Below are positions 16,839 to 25,906 of a DNA stretch of 64,000 nt, one piece after another (position 1 is the first letter of the stretch; each line of letters begins with the position of its first letter). The notes under the pieces were generated by a model. The model did not search any database and was not told where the DNA came from. It worked only from the letters and a program-made list of their open reading frames with translations. This DNA comes from a virus, in the IMG/VR virus record IMGVR_UViG_3300036826_000567, positions 34,898 through 98,897 of that record, one strand, 5' to 3'. A program made the translations under genes and the position numbers.

Positions 16839-17647
16839 CCTCGTCCTTCTCTGCACGCTCTCGCTCGGCTTCCTGCGGCTCATAGCGGGCAGTCGCATAG
16901 GGATCGGTGTACGGGCAATACTGCTCCGCGGCTACATGCGCCATGCGCTCCTCGCCACAGTGCTGACAGGGAGTAGTCCGGTGCGAGGGTGCGTCGCTCC
17001 TGTCTCTCGGCTCCATCACGCCTCCTCTTCCCAATTGGCATGCAAATGTTCCCAGGTCATGAGGAGATGGCGGACCAACTCAAAATCAGGTGTCTTGTCT
17101 TCGCACATCTGTTGAAACACGTCGGGCCCTTGCGTCCAATCAATGGGCAACGCCAATAACCGCTGCTGCAAGGCTCGCGCCTGCACGTAGCGGTAATAGG
17201 TCGGCGCTACGATCAACCCAGACTGGTGTGTGACGCCATAGACAATTCCCATGGCGCTGTTATGCTTCTGGATCCAGAGGCCACCCTCTAGGTCACTGCC
17301 CCAGGCTACCGACTCGTGGCATTCGCCACAGGGGCATGGTACTCTCTCGTCCTCGGGACGCTGCTGAATTGGGAAACGAATCATTCTTCCTCCTTTCCTG
17401 GCCCTCGCCGGCTCGCTATCGGGTCCGTATAGGGCAGACTTCGATGCTGCATGCCCTCCTCACTCTCAGGGATAATTACCACGGTAAACCCCTCGCCGTC
17501 GTTCACGAAAAAGGGGCCAGCGGTCATGAGGACGGTGTCCTCGACTATCGCCATCAGCGCCTCCCGCAAGCGCCGCAGGTCGTCCAGCGTCCCAACAATC
17601 ATGGCATCGTCATGCCACGCCTCTTGCGCATAGATATGCAGGGTCAT
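16825..17647 (-). other. Three small hypothetical CDSs (16825-17016, 17016-17384, 17381-17647)
   Basis: Overlapping stop/start codons, each with a GGAGG-type RBS. Confidence 0.5.
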
Positions 17648-18543
17648 CCTACCTCCTCTCTTGCGTCCCGCCATAGGCAGCTTGCGATCCCCTTCCCATT
17701 GCGCGCAAACAGCACTTCCTGGCGGGGGTGTTTCGCAGGCGCGCATGCAAACAGGCTCGGCTGCGCTTGCGCCTGCTCAATGCGCTGACACGCCAGGTCA
17801 AAATACTCCGGCTCTTGCTCAATCCCGATAAACGCCCTGCCTAGTTCTACGGCGGCTACGCCTGCAGTGCCAGAGCCCATAAACGGGTCAAGAATGGTAT
17901 CTGGCGGCAGGGACCAACCTTGCATCACCCCTCTCGCCATCACGAGCGGCATCGGACATGGATGCCCTGGCACCGCTTCAGGCTGGATATGATCCCAGAC
18001 GCTCCGACACCAGAGCGCTTTCGCCTGGGGCGAGAGTTCGGGATAGGCATAGGCGCCCGGTCGACCTCCCGGCTGCCGGGCAAACAGGCAGTGGCTGTGC
18101 TGCGTCAGCACTGCCGGGCTTCCTGGCGCGCAGATAAGTCTGCTCGCGTTCCCGCCCCAGCGCCCCCGATGCCAGATGACCGTTTCCTTGAACAAGAGCC
18201 CCGCCTCGCTCATCGCTTGGGAGATCACCGCATGGGTGTTCATGCAGACCTGCTCAGTCTGGCCCCGAGTCGCATGGGGATGTTCTGGCGAGAGGTGCAT
18301 ATCCTGGACCTCGACAAAGCACCAGCCCCCGGGTCGGAGAAGTTGCGCCACGGACGCCACCCAGGTCCTGGTAAACTGGAAAAACGCCTCGAGCGATGTC
18401 CAGGCCCTGCGCTCATACGCACGCCCGGCGTTAAAGGGCGGGCTGGTCAGCACCTGCCCTACGGGTTCCAGGGTCGGTAAGATCGTCAGGCAATCGCCGC
18501 GATACAGCGTGCAGGCGCCAATCTGCTCACACTCCGTACTCAC
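17644..18543 (-). CDS. DNA methyltransferase, beta class (N4-C/N6-A)
   Basis: LYRGDC, catalytic TSPPF, HPCPMP, SAM-binding ILDPFMGSGT and FIGIE. Confidence 0.92.
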   Translation of the reverse strand: MSTECEQIGACTLYRGDCLTILPTLEPVGQVLTSPPFNAGRAYERRAWTSLEAFFQFTRTWVASVAQLLRPGGWCFVEVQDMHLSPEHPHATRGQTEQVCMNTHAVISQAMSEAGLLFKETVIWHRGRWGGNASRLICAPGSPAVLTQHSHCLFARQPGGRPGAYAYPELSPQAKALWCRSVWDHIQPEAVPGHPCPMPLVMARGVMQGWSLPPDTILDPFMGSGTAGVAAVELGRAFIGIEQEPEYFDLACQRIEQAQAQPSLFACAPAKHPRQEVLFARNGKGIASCLWRDAREEVG

Positions 18544-18982
18544 TCAGCGTCTCTCCTCTCCCTGGCCTGCCCCAGACGGCGGACTTTGGTCCCGCGCTGC
18601 TTCTGGCGCACGCCCCGGCATGGCCCCACCGTGAGCGCCCCGCTGGGGTCCTTGTCCCCCCAGGCGTTCGCGATAACCTGCATGACATTGCCATAGCCCC
18701 ACGTCTCGCATACGGCCAAGACGCGCTTCATCGCCTCAATCTCGCCAAAGAACCACTGACGGTTCTTCCAGTCGCTCATCCCTCCTCCTCTCCCACACGC
18801 CCCAGGCGGCGGGCTTCCTCTACCGCATCCAGGATGTCGCGGACAGCGGGGTCCACCGGCCTTGCATAGCAGTCGTCACACTGCCACACGGCGGGTAACT
18901 CCCCGACGTTGAGCCGATGGACGGCGATCCCGTCCCGCTCGGCACTCCGACCACAGTCTCTACAGATACTCAGTGCCATCAC
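18540..18982 (-). other. Two small hypothetical CDSs (18540-18779, 18776-18982)
   Basis: Translationally coupled; RBSs present. Confidence 0.5.
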
Positions 18983-19449
18983 GCCTCCTCTCGCTCACCC
19001 CGCCACCGGCGGTGCGCTGCTTCCATGGCCGGTACAATCTCGGCCATCGTCAAGCCCTGTGCATAGGCCGCTGACTCATGGCCCGGAAACACGGCCCGCG
19101 CAATGGCTTCGGCAGCCTCGACTGCTGCCCGCACTTCCTCGTCGGTCATCCAGCGCTCGGGCTCACATCCCCAGGGACAGCGCAAGCGCGGGTCCTGGCT
19201 CAATGACCACAAGCGGCAGATGAGCGGACGCACCCGATAGACACTGCACGCACCTGCCTTGAGGAGCGGACAGGTGCCGTCCGGCAGGAACTTCGGCTTC
19301 AGGGGCCGCTGGCGCTGGATGCGCCGCCATTCAACCCGTGTCATGATGATGATGCCGCAACTCTCCTGGCACTGCCGCTGACAGGCCACCCGCGGCAGCG
19401 TCGCATAGAGGGCGTCCAGTTGCGTCACGGCTTCCGCGTAGGTCATCAT
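18979..19449 (-). CDS. YkgJ-family cysteine-cluster protein
   Basis: CQRQCQESC..CPLL..CSVYRVRPLICR motif. Confidence 0.8.
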   Translation of the reverse strand: MMTYAEAVTQLDALYATLPRVACQRQCQESCGIIIMTRVEWRRIQRQRPLKPKFLPDGTCPLLKAGACSVYRVRPLICRLWSLSQDPRLRCPWGCEPERWMTDEEVRAAVEAAEAIARAVFPGHESAAYAQGLTMAEIVPAMEAAHRRWRGEREEA

Positions 19450-19470
19450 CGCTCCTCTCCTCTCCCATTG

Positions 19471-22661: not shown

Positions 22662-23258
22662 TTAGTTAGCCTTCAATATTGAAGGGTCAAGCGTTCTGTA
22701 GTCCTGTCGTATCGCCGCAATATCTTCCTCATCGAGGCTGAACCACTCTCCCCGTTGGTGCTTGGCATCAAAGCGCCGGTGGAGTTCTTGCTCTGTCTGC
22801 ACCATATCTGCCGTGGGGATAAGCAGAAGCGTCTCCAGTGGAAATGGCGCGTGGGCCGTCATAGGTGTCAATCGCTTGTAAGGGTCTTCAGTGCGACCAA
22901 TTTTGTAGTAGGACTCTCCGCGAATGATGTAGACAAACCCTTTCGATGATTTTGCTGGAGGTGCTCCCTGTGTGACTTTACGTCGTATTGGCATTGGCTG
23001 GCTTGGCAGGCTTCTCTGCCTTTCTCTGGTCGCCATCGCTTCTTCAATTTCATCAAGCGTGGTAAGCCCAGAGCCACGGTCTAGCCAAAATTCACCCGCA
23101 TGTCGCGCCAGGTTTTGCATTCTTGGAATCAGGGCTAGTACGCGCTCGCCAATTTCTAAAGCACTGAGTCCTTGGACCTGTGACACCCCAATTACCATCT
23201 CGTGTGGCGATACAAGCCATCTATTCCCGTCCTGATAGATCATGTCTGCAAAGGTCAT
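22662..23258 (-). CDS. GIY-YIG (T5orf172/MUG113-like) nuclease-domain protein
   Basis: GFVYII..YYKIGRT..KRL..EQELHRRF..RGEWF. Confidence 0.85.
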   Translation of the reverse strand: MTFADMIYQDGNRWLVSPHEMVIGVSQVQGLSALEIGERVLALIPRMQNLARHAGEFWLDRGSGLTTLDEIEEAMATRERQRSLPSQPMPIRRKVTQGAPPAKSSKGFVYIIRGESYYKIGRTEDPYKRLTPMTAHAPFPLETLLLIPTADMVQTEQELHRRFDAKHQRGEWFSLDEEDIAAIRQDYRTLDPSILKAN

Positions 23259-23297
23259 CTTTCCCCCTCTATCATTATCACACGCCAAAATGTTCAC

Positions 23298-23335
23298 TTG
23301 ACAATATGGTAACATACTGGCATAATTGCTGTCAA
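23298..23335. promoter_or_regulatory. Overlapping divergent sigma70-type promoters
   Basis: Plus strand: TTGACA(23298)-N17-CATAAT. Minus strand: TTGACA(23335)-N18-TACCAT. Confidence 0.65.
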
Positions 23336-23401
23336 GCATTGGCTGTGGTATTCTTTCAATCAAGAGGGGTTGACAACATGCAAACATCAGAGGTGATCCT
23401 T

Positions 23402-23581
23402 ATGGCCGAGAAAAAAGACATTAAACAAACTGCGGTACGTGTTGAGCGTGCCGTACTCAGGAAGGCCAAGTTTTACCTGGATGAGGAAAACAAGAGCCTT
23501 CAGGAGTTCCTAGAGAGCTGCCTTGTTGGCTACGTCCAACAACGTGACCAAGAACGGGAGCGTGACGCCGTCTCCGCCTAG
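23402..23581 (+). CDS. Ribbon-helix-helix-like regulator
   Basis: KQTAVRVERAVLRKAK..SLQEFLE pattern; GAGGTG RBS. Confidence 0.6.
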   Translation: MAEKKDIKQTAVRVERAVLRKAKFYLDEENKSLQEFLESCLVGYVQQRDQERERDAVSA

Positions 23582-23645
23582 CCCCCGTCTCCCTGGTACG
23601 CCCGGTGGTCGGTGCGCGCCGTGTGTTCCTCACTCTGGAGGTGCT

Positions 23646-23759
23646 ATGCCCTTGGACGGACTGTTTTCCGATTCCGGTTTCATCCGTGGCGTTGGCTATC
23701 TGTTCATGGTCGCCGCGTTCATCCGTCTCGTCTTGCTCATCGCGGAGCCTGATGCCTAA
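23646..23759 (+). CDS. Small membrane peptide (array unit 1)
   Basis: CTGGAGGT RBS; one hydrophobic helix. Confidence 0.55.
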   Translation: MPLDGLFSDSGFIRGVGYLFMVAAFIRLVLLIAEPDA

Positions 23760-23792
23760 TGCTGTGTCGTTACCCTGTCCCATGGAGGTGGT

Positions 23793-24017
23793 ATGTCTTT
23801 GCCCTGGCCGCAGTTGTTCTTCGAGACCCTGGCGCTCTTTCCTGCTCCCCCGGCATCGTTGCGGCCCGCGGACTGCTGGCACTGCCTGCGGTCCCGCCCG
23901 GCCTATCGTACGATGCCGTATGGGACCGCTCAAAAAGCCGTGGCACGGTTGTGTCAGCGCCGCTTGCTCGTGCGCGTAGGCCATGGCCGGTATGCTCGCG
24001 CCCCCCTGGCGCCGTAA
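23793..24017 (+). CDS. Small winged-helix-like protein (array unit 2)
   Basis: TAQKAVARLCQRRLLVRVGHGRY resembles a wHTH wing. Confidence 0.55.
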   Translation: MSLPWPQLFFETLALFPAPPASLRPADCWHCLRSRPAYRTMPYGTAQKAVARLCQRRLLVRVGHGRYARAPLAP

Positions 24018-24032
24018 CCCTGTTGGAGGTCT

Positions 24033-24293
24033 GTGATGCCTGTTGTTATTGCTGGTGCCGTCCCCGTCCAGTCCCTCAATATGCACCAGCGTGCCTGTGA
24101 GGTGTATATCGAGGCCGAGCAAGCGAAGATCCTGCCCGATACGCACCTGATTGCGCTCCTGTGCGACTCCGTGCGATTGGTGCGGGAGAACACGGCCCTG
24201 CATGCAGAGTGCTTGGCGTTGGCTGGGCGCTTGATCGAGGCCAAAATGGAGATTGAGCGGCTGCGCCACTCTTGTGCCCCGCTGGTGCGCTAA
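24033..24293 (+). CDS. Small coiled-coil protein (array unit 3)
   Basis: Linker RBS; heptad pattern. Confidence 0.6.
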   Translation: MMPVVIAGAVPVQSLNMHQRACEVYIEAEQAKILPDTHLIALLCDSVRLVRENTALHAECLALAGRLIEAKMEIERLRHSCAPLVR

Positions 24294-24308
24294 CGCTGGA
24301 GGTGTGGT

Positions 24309-24512
24309 ATGGAAAAACGTATTGGTACGTGTGGTTCCTGTGGTGGTGATGTTATGGGCCATCGTGGCGGTTGGATGGGGATCAATCCCCCGCCTCCGGA
24401 TCAGTGTCGGTCCTGTGGCGCAGTGGTCCGTGGACAGTCGGATATGCTGGCGATGGGGCCAACGCCCCGCCGTCCGATCCCGCAGGGACCGTCGCGTCCT
24501 CGCACGCCCTAA
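24309..24512 (+). CDS. Small zinc-ribbon protein (array unit 4)
   Basis: CGSCGG..CRSCGA. Confidence 0.65.
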   Translation: MEKRIGTCGSCGGDVMGHRGGWMGINPPPPDQCRSCGAVVRGQSDMLAMGPTPRRPIPQGPSRPRTP

Positions 24513-24527
24513 CCCTGGAGGTGGTCT

Positions 24528-24734
24528 ATGTCCTTGTTGGACGTCTGCCTTGTGAGCCTCGCCGGCCTTGTCGGCGTGGCTCTGCTGACTCTGTGTGTCG
24601 GCTCGCTGCTGCTCTCGCTCCTGGCCGGTGTGCTGGGATTCAGTCTTCCACTTTGGATGCAGGCGCTGGGGGGACTGACGGCCATCGCTGTCTTCTGGGC
24701 GGGGGCCATGCAGCTCGCACAGCCCCCCGCATAA
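24528..24734 (+). CDS. Small membrane protein (array unit 5)
   Basis: Two hydrophobic helices. Confidence 0.6.
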   Translation: MSLLDVCLVSLAGLVGVALLTLCVGSLLLSLLAGVLGFSLPLWMQALGGLTAIAVFWAGAMQLAQPPA

Positions 24735-24749
24735 TTCTGGAGGTCTCTG

Positions 24750-24980
24750 ATGCTGACCTATCACGTGTGCTGTGCAAAGCCGCTCGCTGGGGCCGTGTGC
24801 TGCCGCACCATGGCCGAGTCGCATCGCTTGTTCTGTGGCGCCATCGAGGCCCTGCGCTGGCATCGCGGGCAACCGTGGGAGCGTGTCGGGCTTCATACGG
24901 TGGTGCGCGAGGATGTCAGCGCTGCTGCGGTGGTAGAGCCGCAACAAGGGCTGTTTCCTGACGTTCCCATGGGGCCCTAA
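24750..24980 (+). CDS. Small hypothetical protein (array unit 6)
   Basis: Linker RBS; QQGLF clamp-binding-like motif near the C-terminus. Confidence 0.55.
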   Translation: MLTYHVCCAKPLAGAVCCRTMAESHRLFCGAIEALRWHRGQPWERVGLHTVVREDVSAAAVVEPQQGLFPDVPMGP

Positions 24981-24995
24981 CCCTGGAGGTATGCT

Positions 24996-25235
24996 ATGGC
25001 GCATGATGCCCTCGATGTCATCGCGGAATCCTACAAGTCGCTCGCCCTGTCGCAGCGCTTGGCATTGCGTCTGCATGGCCTGGCCTTCCTGATGCTGGGA
25101 CTGGCCCTGCTGGTCTTGGGCTGGGTCGCCTACCAGCAGATCCAGGTGCAGTCCGTGCTGCGCCAGCATACGGATACGCTCACGGTCCAGACGCAGGCCC
25201 TGCAGGTGCTGCTGCAACGCGGCGCTGGACACTAG
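24996..25235 (+). CDS. Small membrane-anchored coiled-coil protein (array unit 7)
   Basis: TM helix followed by Gln-rich heptads. Confidence 0.6.
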   Translation: MAHDALDVIAESYKSLALSQRLALRLHGLAFLMLGLALLVLGWVAYQQIQVQSVLRQHTDTLTVQTQALQVLLQRGAGH

Positions 25236-25238
25236 GAG

Positions 25239-25604
25239 GTGCACTTGGCTCGACAGAAACCTCACTATTCGCGGTACTGGTCCCTGTTCTCGCGCTATAT
25301 TCGCTATGTCCGGGCTCAGGGGCGCTGTGAGTGCGAAGGGGAGTGTGGATTGCACCGGACGCATCCTGGTCCACGTCGCTGTGTTGAGGTGGATCATCAG
25401 CCTGCAGTCTGGGCCAAGGGCCGCGTGGTGCTTACCGTGGCCCATCTGTGCACATGTGAGCCGCCTTGTACCCTGATTACTCATGTCAAAGCTCTCTGTA
25501 ACCGTTGCCACTTGTTGGCCGATGGCCCCTTACATCAGCGTCATGCGGCGGAAACGCGCCGCCAGCAGAAAGAAGCGGCGGGCCAACTCTCGTTTCTGCG
25601 CTAG
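25239..25604 (+). CDS. HNH-like zinc-finger protein
   Basis: RAQGRCEC..VVLTVAHL..ALCNRCHL..D; C-terminal QLSFL clamp-binding-like motif. Confidence 0.7.
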   Translation: MHLARQKPHYSRYWSLFSRYIRYVRAQGRCECEGECGLHRTHPGPRRCVEVDHQPAVWAKGRVVLTVAHLCTCEPPCTLITHVKALCNRCHLLADGPLHQRHAAETRRQQKEAAGQLSFLR

Positions 25605-25612
25605 GAGCCGCT

Positions 25613-25906
25613 ATGCCTGACACCGATGACCATCCTGACCATCCCTCCATCCCTGATGCGCTGACGCTTGATCCAGTGACCATCGACAACGTGCTGCTGC
25701 GGCGTCTGGTGGAGGAGGTGCAGCAGGATGAGGTGCGTGGGCCACAGCTCTATGACCGCGTGCACAATCGCCACAACCGGGGCGGCCCCACGCGCCCCTG
25801 GCCCACGCCACCGCGGCCTACCCCACCGCGGCCTACCCCACCGCGGCCTACCCCACCGCGGCCCGCGCCTGAGAAGCCGCCGGAGGAGCCAGTGCTGGAG
25901 CCGTGA
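25613..25906 (+). CDS. YhhA-like cyclophane (triceptide) RiPP precursor with Pro-rich tail
   Basis: IDNVLLRRLVEEV..YDRVHNRHNR resembles the YhhA leader and core; 15-bp tandem repeat encoding (PTPPR)4 at ~25802-25862. Confidence 0.55.
   Translation: MPDTDDHPDHPSIPDALTLDPVTIDNVLLRRLVEEVQQDEVRGPQLYDRVHNRHNRGGPTRPWPTPPRPTPPRPTPPRPTPPRPAPEKPPEEPVLEP

Follow-up and report, generated by a model that had tools for sequence, protein, structure and literature searches.

The window, a 64,000-nt stretch of a 98,897-bp contig (IMG/VR record IMGVR_UViG_3300036826_000567), contains on its + strand, from 23646 to 25604, eight small genes in a single reading frame, with a short linker of stop codon, Shine-Dalgarno (SD) sequence and start codon repeated at consecutive junctions. 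[quoted passage not shown] 2011, PMC3203893) and Cluster EF Microbacterium phages (Jacobs-Sera et al. 2020, PMC7302621). The linker resembles the SAS of actinobacterial phages and is a compact case of such a motif outside the cultured actinobacteriophages. As it stands, the block is a well-documented curiosity within an otherwise ordinary early operon.

Organization of the operon

Behind its promoter and a small regulator-like gene, the operon encodes seven small proteins that are unrelated to one another, an HNH endonuclease and a RiPP-precursor-like peptide. The features are as follows.

23298..23326, + strand: strong sigma-70-like promoter of the rightward operon; TTGACA, 17 nt, CATAAT, with TG ahead of the second hexamer; 11 of 12 consensus matches
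23306..23335, - strand: divergent leftward promoter-like site for the replication arm, facing the rightward promoter
23402..23581, + strand: first operon gene; 59-aa putative small regulator, weakly Arc/RHH-like, outside the common frame
23646..23759, + strand: unit 1; 37-aa hydrophobic peptide, orphan with a self match only
23793..24017, + strand: unit 2; 74 aa, orphan, with faint MarR-like matches (E = 0.09, below cut-off)
24036..24293, + strand: unit 3; 85 aa, a conserved helical domain family without a Pfam entry
24309..24512, + strand: unit 4; 67-aa four-Cys zinc ribbon; its large family comprises ~70-aa proteins of phages and bacteria
24528..24734, + strand: unit 5; 68 aa, two hydrophobic segments, one 61% identical relative (P0070)
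24750..24980, + strand: unit 6; 76 aa, Cys-rich N-terminus, orphan (phrog_21024, E = 0.004)
24996..25235, + strand: unit 7; 79 aa, a single hydrophobic segment and then a Q-rich helix, orphan
25245..25604, + strand: unit 8; HNH endonuclease with a TTG start (phrog_1571, E = 2e-21)
25613..25906, + strand: last gene; 97 aa, in another frame, matching a YhhA cyclophane RiPP precursor

We reproduced the ORF and junction positions of the first-pass annotation except for two start codons. Six of its eight starts were kept, and those at 24033 and 25239 were moved. Unit 3 most likely starts at ATG 24036 and not at GTG 24033, because the GTG lies just 2 nt past GGAGGT, the homologues P0011 and P0013 align from ATG 24036, and precisely the 85-aa form is present in a public collection. 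For the HNH gene, TTG 25245 is the most likely start, since GTG 25239 sits inside the SD, which is itself overlapped by the TAG stop of unit 7. Both corrected starts keep the common frame. As had been described, the block runs opposite to its surroundings, being flanked by - strand genes over ~13 kb to the left and ~5 kb to the right. The replication arm encodes a T5orf172-like protein, a replication initiator, a primase-helicase and a methyltransferase; the T5orf172-like protein and the initiator neighbor the block, together with small proteins of no assigned family.

The stop-to-start gaps of the block measure 33, 18, 15, 15, 15, 15 and 9 nt, every one a multiple of three. According to a crude gene call of the contig, a 15-nt gap occurs at 2 of the 127 other same-strand junctions and a gap divisible by three at 26 of the 127, and the block is the sole run of more than four genes in one frame. 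The common frame exists because the linker lengths are multiples of three, and it is best read as a by-product of those lengths rather than a functional feature. Under this view, the divisibility of the three junctions of other lengths (33, 18 and 9 nt) would be due to chance, at a probability of about 0.01-0.04, which counts against it. TAA is used at six consecutive stops of the block, compared with 38 of 153 stops elsewhere.

The claim that the block has its own promoter is borne out by the promoter-like site at 23298-23326. Promoter- or terminator-like sites are absent from the interior of the array, and the combination of an upstream promoter-like site with an uninterrupted interior supports the reading as a single SAS-like operon. 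Searches for an attenuator past the first gene and a terminator past the last gene returned nothing beyond shuffled sequences. The first gene had been described as an RHH regulator, which is a weak assignment: its product has one PHROG match to an Arc-like repressor (phrog_582, E = 0.024), and the single-sequence AlphaFold (AF2) model gives one long helix. A PDB sequence search with this product gave no match, and its relatives are missing from IMG/VR; one relative, P0157, is 86% identical and lies on a 1.6-kb JGI contig. In the P22 immI arc-ant operon, a small RHH repressor is encoded first and shuts off the early operon after a burst. Our operon likewise opens with a small regulator-like gene, but with a weak RHH identity and an unrelated cargo. 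Were this gene to encode an Arc-type autorepressor, the operon would be expressed as an early burst. Within the last gene, residues 24-56 match the YhhA cyclophane RiPP precursor model NF041705 (48.4 bits, cut-off 36), and the C-terminus carries four proline-rich repeats that derive from a 15-nt tandem repeat (repeat family D1).

The linker and its resemblance to start-associated sequences

The linker module reads TAA-(C/T)N-CTGGAGGT-N5-ATG and appears at the following junctions.

24015..24038, + strand: junction 2; TAA + 18 nt + ATG, the linker plus 3 inserted nt; repeat families D4 and D9
24291..24311, + strand: junction 3; TAA-CG-CTGGAGGT-N5-ATG; repeat family D2
24510..24530, + strand: junction 4; TAA-CC-CTGGAGGT-N5-ATG
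24732..24752, + strand: junction 5; TAA-TT-CTGGAGGT-N5-ATG
24978..24998, + strand: junction 6; TAA-CC-CTGGAGGT-N5-ATG

Thus, of the five exact joints of TAA, 15 nt and a start claimed initially, four consecutive ones are exact with ATG, and the fifth has a 3-nt insertion. The reported 16-nt sequence CCCTAACCCTGGAGGT does occur twice exactly. The degenerate 13-mer TAAYNCTGGAGGT has 4 copies in the window and 0 in 100 shuffles, and the linker count called for earlier, now run over the whole 98,897-bp contig, finds the same 4 copies, all inside the block. They lie on the + strand within a 1.4-kb stretch (23631-25000), each in the same orientation and 5 nt ahead of an ATG, in an operon of non-structural genes. 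When the 8-mer or 7-mer core alone is counted, there are six or seven copies, again all in one operon.

Part of this pattern is the ordinary translation signal of the element. GGAGG, its usual ribosome-binding site, precedes 41 of the 160 called genes, most commonly at a spacing of 6 nt from the start. In the module, a full-strength SD site lies two bases past each stop and the GGAGG core lies six bases ahead of the next ATG. The SD and the distances are conserved and the N5 spacer is not, which supports the SAS-like reading, as do the confinement to one operon and one orientation and the consistent ATG, in agreement with the published description of SAS (PMC3203893, PMC7302621).

The linker nevertheless exceeds the ordinary SD context, as its description as a fixed joint had implied: compared with the other GGAGG starts of the element, its flanking bases, its TAA and its constant spacing are private to the block (p <= 5e-5). 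Identity between junctions outside the GGAGG core is 43-67%, versus 27% when sets of the element's other starts with GGAGG are drawn at random (p <= 5e-5). Fisher tests give p = 0.003 for CT ahead of the core and p = 0.0005 for T behind it. An SD function alone leaves unexplained the invariant T (mostly CT) before GGAGG, the six straight TAA stops and the exact 16-nt repeat, which counts against the SAS-like reading. The CT before the core, the fixed TAA and a CCC found in three junctions are conserved without pairing to 16S rRNA, and therefore the linkers are either copies of one another or meet an extra constraint. In some junction pairs, the similarity of the flanks extends to ~30 nt (repeat families D2, D4 and D9), which fits copying by recombination equally well and counts against the SAS-like reading. 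Junction 2 looks mosaic, with its left half similar to junction 4 and its right half to junction 5. The leftward neighbor operon has an SD "dialect" of its own, GAGAGGAGG, at five consecutive genes; operon-specific initiation motifs therefore recur in this element. CTGGAG was also considered as a restriction or methylation target and rejected, with 46 and 67 sites against 52 and 62 expected genome-wide, neither enriched nor avoided.

The likeness to SAS extends over several features. Both are asymmetric motifs of ~13 nt with an SD core that are conserved far beyond the ribosome-binding site, both stand 3-7 nt before starts, mostly ATG, in one orientation at non-structural genes, and both precede genes of unrelated families. 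SAS sometimes take in the upstream stop codon, and they too have some conserved positions unable to pair with 16S rRNA. However, SAS occur in at least 10 copies per genome over many operons, whereas the block has 4 to 7, consecutive and in one operon, and its sequence is unrelated to the published SAS motifs. ESAS, 17-bp inverted repeats upstream of about half of the SAS sites, are missing at the block, where the upstream sequence is coding. The single frame of all units and the stop at a fixed distance are features of the block, and because of this fixed stop the whole intergenic gap is the motif. SAS have been known since 2011 (PMC3203893). They are characterized by conservation across the phages of a cluster; the searches for relatives of the block gave none that shares it. 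With its fixed stop and spacing, the block offers a clean substrate for sorting the positions that serve translation from those conserved for other reasons, and for asking whether such joints double as crossover points.

Under the SAS-like reading, each cistron of the polycistronic mRNA would start from the same strong initiation region, and ribosomes ending one cistron may pass straight to the next start. Such translational coupling would give uniformly high output of all the mini-proteins with reading frames that do not overlap.

The units and their relatives

The earlier description of the cargo as unrelated holds. We detect no paralogy among the units. Units 3 and 4 each represent a different widespread family, and the two families are never found together at any of 14 other phage loci. 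At those loci, their homologues have ordinary junctions, ATGA overlaps and mixed frames, which again agrees with the SAS-like reading. The unit 3 domain occurs alone or within larger proteins, and the unit 4 family has four invariant cysteines (C8, C11, C33 and C36). Six of the units are similar in size (67-85 aa). No function was obtained for units 1-7 via Pfam, PHROG, NCBIfam or the ESM Atlas; a putative role of the mini-genes in host takeover or anti-defence is plausible.

None of the relatives found shares the block. A blastn search with the block against 50,697 GenBank phages gave no match. For unit 8, IMG/VR contains 71 relatives with identities of up to 60%, none of which comes with another unit, and the 80 IMG/VR loci (<=48% identical) and 10 GTDB loci (<=47%) with relatives of the primase-helicase contain none of the units. 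The closest relatives lie on short contigs, namely P0157 (86%), P0011 (64%), P0070 (61%) and P0012 (67%).

Alternative readings of the array

Among the alternatives, shuffling through the linker is possible but unlikely. Here, the 13-16-bp direct repeats would act as crossovers: co-infecting genomes would recombine there through short homology, gaining, losing or exchanging one mini-gene at a time, and every product would keep its stop-SD-start joint intact. Such a system would be the minimal equivalent of the promoter-early stem-loop (PeSL) cassettes of T4-type phages (Arbiol et al. 2010, PMC2839356), which are proven sites of gene gain, loss, replacement and mini-circle formation. The cargo is heterogeneous, third-position GC differs among the units (0.57 to 0.84), and the families of units 3, 4 and 8 are scattered singly over unrelated phages with GC of 0.29 to 0.71. 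The mosaic look of the junctions and their similarity beyond what an SD needs point the same way, as does the fact that P0157 is known for the first gene, yet no homologue of units 1 or 2 is detectable in 1.8 billion representative proteins. PeSLs, too, are short regulatory repeats that separate small, non-essential ORFan genes of an early region, but a PeSL has a sigma-70 promoter and a terminator stem-loop, whereas the block linker is just a stop, an SD and a start over ~15-21 nt with no stem-loop. Exchange is proven in T4-type phages, whereas none is seen here. Among the sequencing runs listed with this sequence, three are soil metagenomes of DNA and none is of RNA. The contigs of the three are colinear, match at 100% over junctions 3-6 and show no variant and no linker-to-linker joint, as far as contigs, which drop rare variants, can tell.

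Nor is the linker a shared joint elsewhere. All of the matches to a two-linker DNA pattern (12 in IMG/VR and 9 in JGI metagenomes) are due to chance, falling in Gly-rich coding sequence, a tandem repeat or unrelated DNA. A single-linker pattern has 33 matches in IMG/VR, never arrayed and never beside homologues of the units; ~13 of them are ordinary junctions of larger genes in a few phage families. That the exact linker occurs elsewhere just as single ordinary junctions supports the SAS-like reading; neither in IMG/VR nor in the JGI metagenomes is it a portable joint. Furthermore, 13-16 bp is short for homologous recombination, and Pfam and PHROG scans of the block and its flanks found no recombinase. 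Like the block, integron arrays line up small, unrelated genes that lack promoters of their own and share one orientation and one upstream promoter, but they adjoin the IntI tyrosine recombinase, attI and the Pc promoter, and their attC sites are imperfect inverted repeats of ~55-140 bp, far longer than the 15-nt linkers, whereas the block gaps of 9-33 nt contain no inverted repeats.

A bolder form of this idea is rather improbable. It takes the stop-SD-start linker of 13-16 bp for a portable joint of minimal size, at which this phage lineage would recombine to add, drop and swap single promoter-less mini-genes. Regulation, translation signals and recombination site would then reside in the same 15 nt, and the divisibility of the linker lengths by three might reflect a further constraint, for example tolerance of rare read-through or antisense transcription. 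Proof of exchange at the linker would make the block a natural case, in minimal form, of the old "linker" model for the mosaicism of phages.

It is doubtful that a regulator acting on DNA or mRNA binds or cleaves the linker and thereby shuts the whole operon off together, whether in the manner of L5-type stoperators or in that of T4 RegA/RegB, as a translational repressor or an RNase that cuts the SD. An asymmetric ~13-nt motif in one orientation, placed at stops in short gaps and with positions unable to pair with rRNA, would suit such a site; the operon opens with a small putative DNA-binding protein, and the same possibility was left open for SAS by Pope et al. (PMC3203893). The stoperators of L5 and other Cluster A mycobacteriophages (PMC9283540, PMC6550527) are similarly asymmetric 13-bp sites in short gaps near stops, oriented with transcription. 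However, these are bound by the immunity repressor at tens of sites over both genome arms, whereas our motif contains an SD, is confined to one operon and is missing from the promoter region and the rest of the contig. RNA structure around the motif shows no conservation beyond shuffled sequences, and the model of the putative regulator is one long helix.

Tandem duplication of one ~75-codon unit with its linker, followed by divergence, is very improbable. Inheritance would account for the common frame and linker, ancestral size for the range of six of the units, and some N-termini are alike (MSL, MPL, MPV). This origin is largely refuted by the dissimilarity of the units, which share no detectable similarity and differ in architecture (transmembrane, zinc ribbon, helical), and by the separate homologue families of units 3 and 4 in other phages.

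We give almost no weight to a misreading, in which the eight units are one polyprotein with TAA read through or recoded, or the real gene lies on the opposite strand:

23457..25511, - strand: 684-codon ORF of the antisense, codon-aligned frame; by-product in all likelihood

A single opposite-strand frame is indeed open for 2 kb, and all six internal stops are in-frame TAA, but homologues of units 3, 4, 5 and 8 are separate proteins starting at the predicted ATGs, no match spans two units, and a full SD and start codon stand at every unit. The antisense ORF has no Pfam family match and a codon score of -11, versus +58 for the sense units, and the same antisense frame holds open runs of 509-645 codons at other genes of the element. 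It is most likely open because the eight same-frame genes are poor in TTA, CTA and TCA.

Setting of the eight-gene block

The virus record is 98,897 bp long, with a GC content of 0.60 and an estimated completeness of 88% (CheckV), and the window is its right 64 kb; no terminal repeat is present in the record. It encodes a lambda-like siphovirus structural module (small and large terminase, portal, scaffold, major head protein, tape measure and J-like tail protein), a replication arm (replication initiator, primase-helicase and methyltransferase) and a type IV secretion module (TrbI, a VirB4-like ATPase, TraU and a coupling protein). The full structural module and the secretion set share one contig (window 33000-47000 and contig 3600-45000). 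The block runs on the + strand and is flanked on both sides by gene arms on the - strand. Its features are:

23298-23326, + strand: strong predicted sigma-70-like promoter with 11 of 12 consensus matches, facing a leftward promoter-like site
23402-23581, + strand: first gene of the operon (59 aa), behind the promoter
23646-25604, + strand: eight genes in a single reading frame (units 1 to 8)
25613-25906, + strand: gene of 97 aa, the last of the operon, in a frame different from that of the units
23457-25511, - strand: antisense ORF of 684 codons in the codon-aligned frame, spanning the whole block

Within the divergent promoter region (23298-23380), a TTGACAAYATG direct repeat occurs twice (23298 and 23370) and an inverted TTGACA once (23330-23335); the product of the first gene may use these as operator half-sites. 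A 241-aa ORF on the - strand (22662-23387) has a T5orf172/GIY-YIG-like C-terminal domain (phrog_8130, E = 9e-17); since the ORF as listed runs into the promoter region, its true start must be further downstream.

A recurring linker between the units

The first-pass annotation had described eight same-frame genes joined by a recurring linker, and we confirm this observation after correcting two of its start codons; its starts, spacings and linkers are otherwise real. Unit 3 starts at ATG 24036 and not at GTG 24033, because the GTG is only 2 nt from the Shine-Dalgarno (SD) sequence, the ATG is where alignments with homologues begin, and exactly the 85-aa product appears in public gene calls. The HNH gene (unit 8) starts at TTG 25245, because GTG 25239 falls within the SD. 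With these starts, the units are separated, stop to start, by 33, 18, 15, 15, 15, 15 and 9 nt. Of the five junctions described as having exactly 15 nt between stop and start, four read TAA-(C/T)N-CTGGAGGT-N5-ATG, but junction 2, before unit 3, has three extra bases. The 16-mer CCCTAACCCTGGAGGT is present in two copies in the block junctions, and a degenerate 13-mer of the linker occurs four times in the whole contig, always inside the block, and never in shuffles.

For comparison, genes were called crudely across the contig from codon usage (160 genes). Outside the block, 4-nt and 1-nt overlaps are the usual joints; of 127 same-strand junctions, 2 have a gap of exactly 15 nt and 26 a gap divisible by three, and no other same-frame run of more than four genes was found. 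Stop codons elsewhere are TGA (60), TAG (55) and TAA (38); the block has six consecutive TAA stops. The four 15-nt gaps are multiples of three because they are linker copies, and we leave the same property of the other three gaps to chance (about 0.01-0.04), as a mildly unexplained feature.

GGAGG lies upstream of 41 of the 160 genes, most commonly 6 nt from the start, so in core and spacing the linker is the usual initiation signal of the element. Thus the alternative raised in the first-pass annotation, that the linker is ordinary SD context, holds for core and spacing but not for the flanks. CT precedes the core at 5/8 block junctions versus 3/35 elsewhere (p = 0.003), T follows it at 8/8 versus 11/35 (p = 0.0005), and, with the core excluded, pairwise identity of the block junctions is 43-67% versus 27% when other GGAGG starts are drawn at random in sets (p <= 5e-5). 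The five bases from motif to ATG vary among junctions. Operon-specific initiation motifs recur in the element, since a leftward operon has its own purine-rich extended SD, GAGAGGAGG, at five consecutive genes. This second motif, written (G)GAGAGGAG(G) (17380-19470, - strand), differs from the block linker and sits in the overlapping end of the preceding gene.

Taken together, we consider the block most likely, at roughly even odds, to be an early accessory operon in which a private stop-SD-start linker, resembling the start-associated sequence (SAS) of other phages, would standardize and couple translation of the units.

Cargo and the proposed exchange at the linker

Because all units share a frame, 23646-25232 could be translated as a single string (table 6) and searched once against 1.84 billion representative proteins; the listed matches reach E about 1e-5, and 133 further matches were weaker. 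Among the matches listed, at least about two hundred homologues, around 70 aa long, belong to unit 4 (a four-Cys zinc ribbon) and a single relative (61%) to unit 5; units 1, 2, 6 and 7 match only themselves, and no match covers two units. Homologue starts coincide with the predicted unit ATGs. Unit 3 (24036-24293) is a member of a helical domain family whose domains stand alone or lie within larger proteins. The conserved domain that it defines is about 55 aa long, has no Pfam entry (G-x-YMDRSLNDF-x-RACE ... EEQAK-x-x-PDT-x-LI-x-LLCD-x-VRL-x-RE) and is fused into 130-370 aa proteins or otherwise forms a small phage protein (proteins P0041, P0045, P0122, P0125, P0138 and P0146). Unit 8 is an HNH endonuclease (phrog_1571, E = 2e-21). 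Residues 24-56 of the last gene match the YhhA cyclophane-containing RiPP precursor family (NCBIfam; 48.4 bits versus a curated cut-off of 36), and no radical SAM gene (maturase) was found on the 88% complete contig. The C-terminus of this protein has four proline-rich repeats, from a 15-nt tandem repeat at 25787-25863.

The cargo had been described as unrelated, and indeed we detected no paralogy among the units. On the 14 IMG/VR phage contigs examined for homologues of units 3 and 4 (GC 0.29 to 0.71), the two never occur together; each lies within a row of small genes whose junctions are ordinary, with ATGA overlaps, more than one frame and SDs that vary. This scattering behind ordinary junctions shows that the cargo is truly heterogeneous and the uniform linker private to the element.

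It had also been proposed that the mini-genes are shuffled at the linker, which we consider unlikely. The first gene has an 86% identical relative, P0157, on a 1.6-kb (1,622 bp) JGI contig from another metagenome, and since units 1 and 2 lack homologues among the matches listed, the cargo that follows the first gene may differ there. The contigs with relatives of units 3-5 (61-67%) measure about 0.5 to 1.1 kb. The block has no match among GenBank phages, and every unit is absent beside the nearest primase-helicase relatives (47-48% identical). A pattern search of IMG/VR and JGI metagenomes for two linkers one unit apart gave chance matches only. IMG/VR contains 33 copies of the single linker, always one per contig; some of them join larger genes in the ordinary way, and none lies near unit homologues. 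The element is present in three soil metagenomes, whose contigs have identical sequence in the same order from junction 3 to junction 6, with no rearrangement joints seen, although contigs cannot reveal rare rearrangements.

Comparison with known systems and other readings

The closest published parallel to the linker is the SAS of Cluster K mycobacteriophages (PMC3203893) and Cluster EF Microbacterium phages (PMC7302621). Both are 13-bp asymmetric motifs at the ribosome-binding position, in one orientation, 3-7 bp upstream of a start that is mostly ATG, and both precede unrelated families of non-structural genes only. The upstream stop is sometimes included, and some of the conserved bases are unable to pair with rRNA. 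Unlike SAS, the linker has few copies, all consecutive, has the stop at a fixed distance so that the motif fills the entire gap, and lacks inverted repeats of the type found upstream of SAS (ESAS). Gene shuffling mediated by intergenic repeats between early ORFans is known from the promoter-early stem-loop (PeSL) cassettes found in T4-type phages (PMC2839356), but these cassettes carry a promoter and a terminator, and the block linker has neither. Integron and stoperator membership each fail on defining features.

That the linker is a regulator site seems to us improbable. No conserved RNA structure was found at the linkers, and the type IIS recognition sequence CTGGAG shows neither enrichment nor avoidance, arguing against a restriction site. 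Read-through of the TAA codons into a polyprotein is contradicted by the separate homologues and by the full SD and ATG of each unit. The antisense ORF has no family match and a negative codon score. It requires only the absence of TTA, CTA and TCA codons (0.8% of the element's codons), open antisense runs of 509-645 codons are found in other genes of the element, and it is most likely a by-product.
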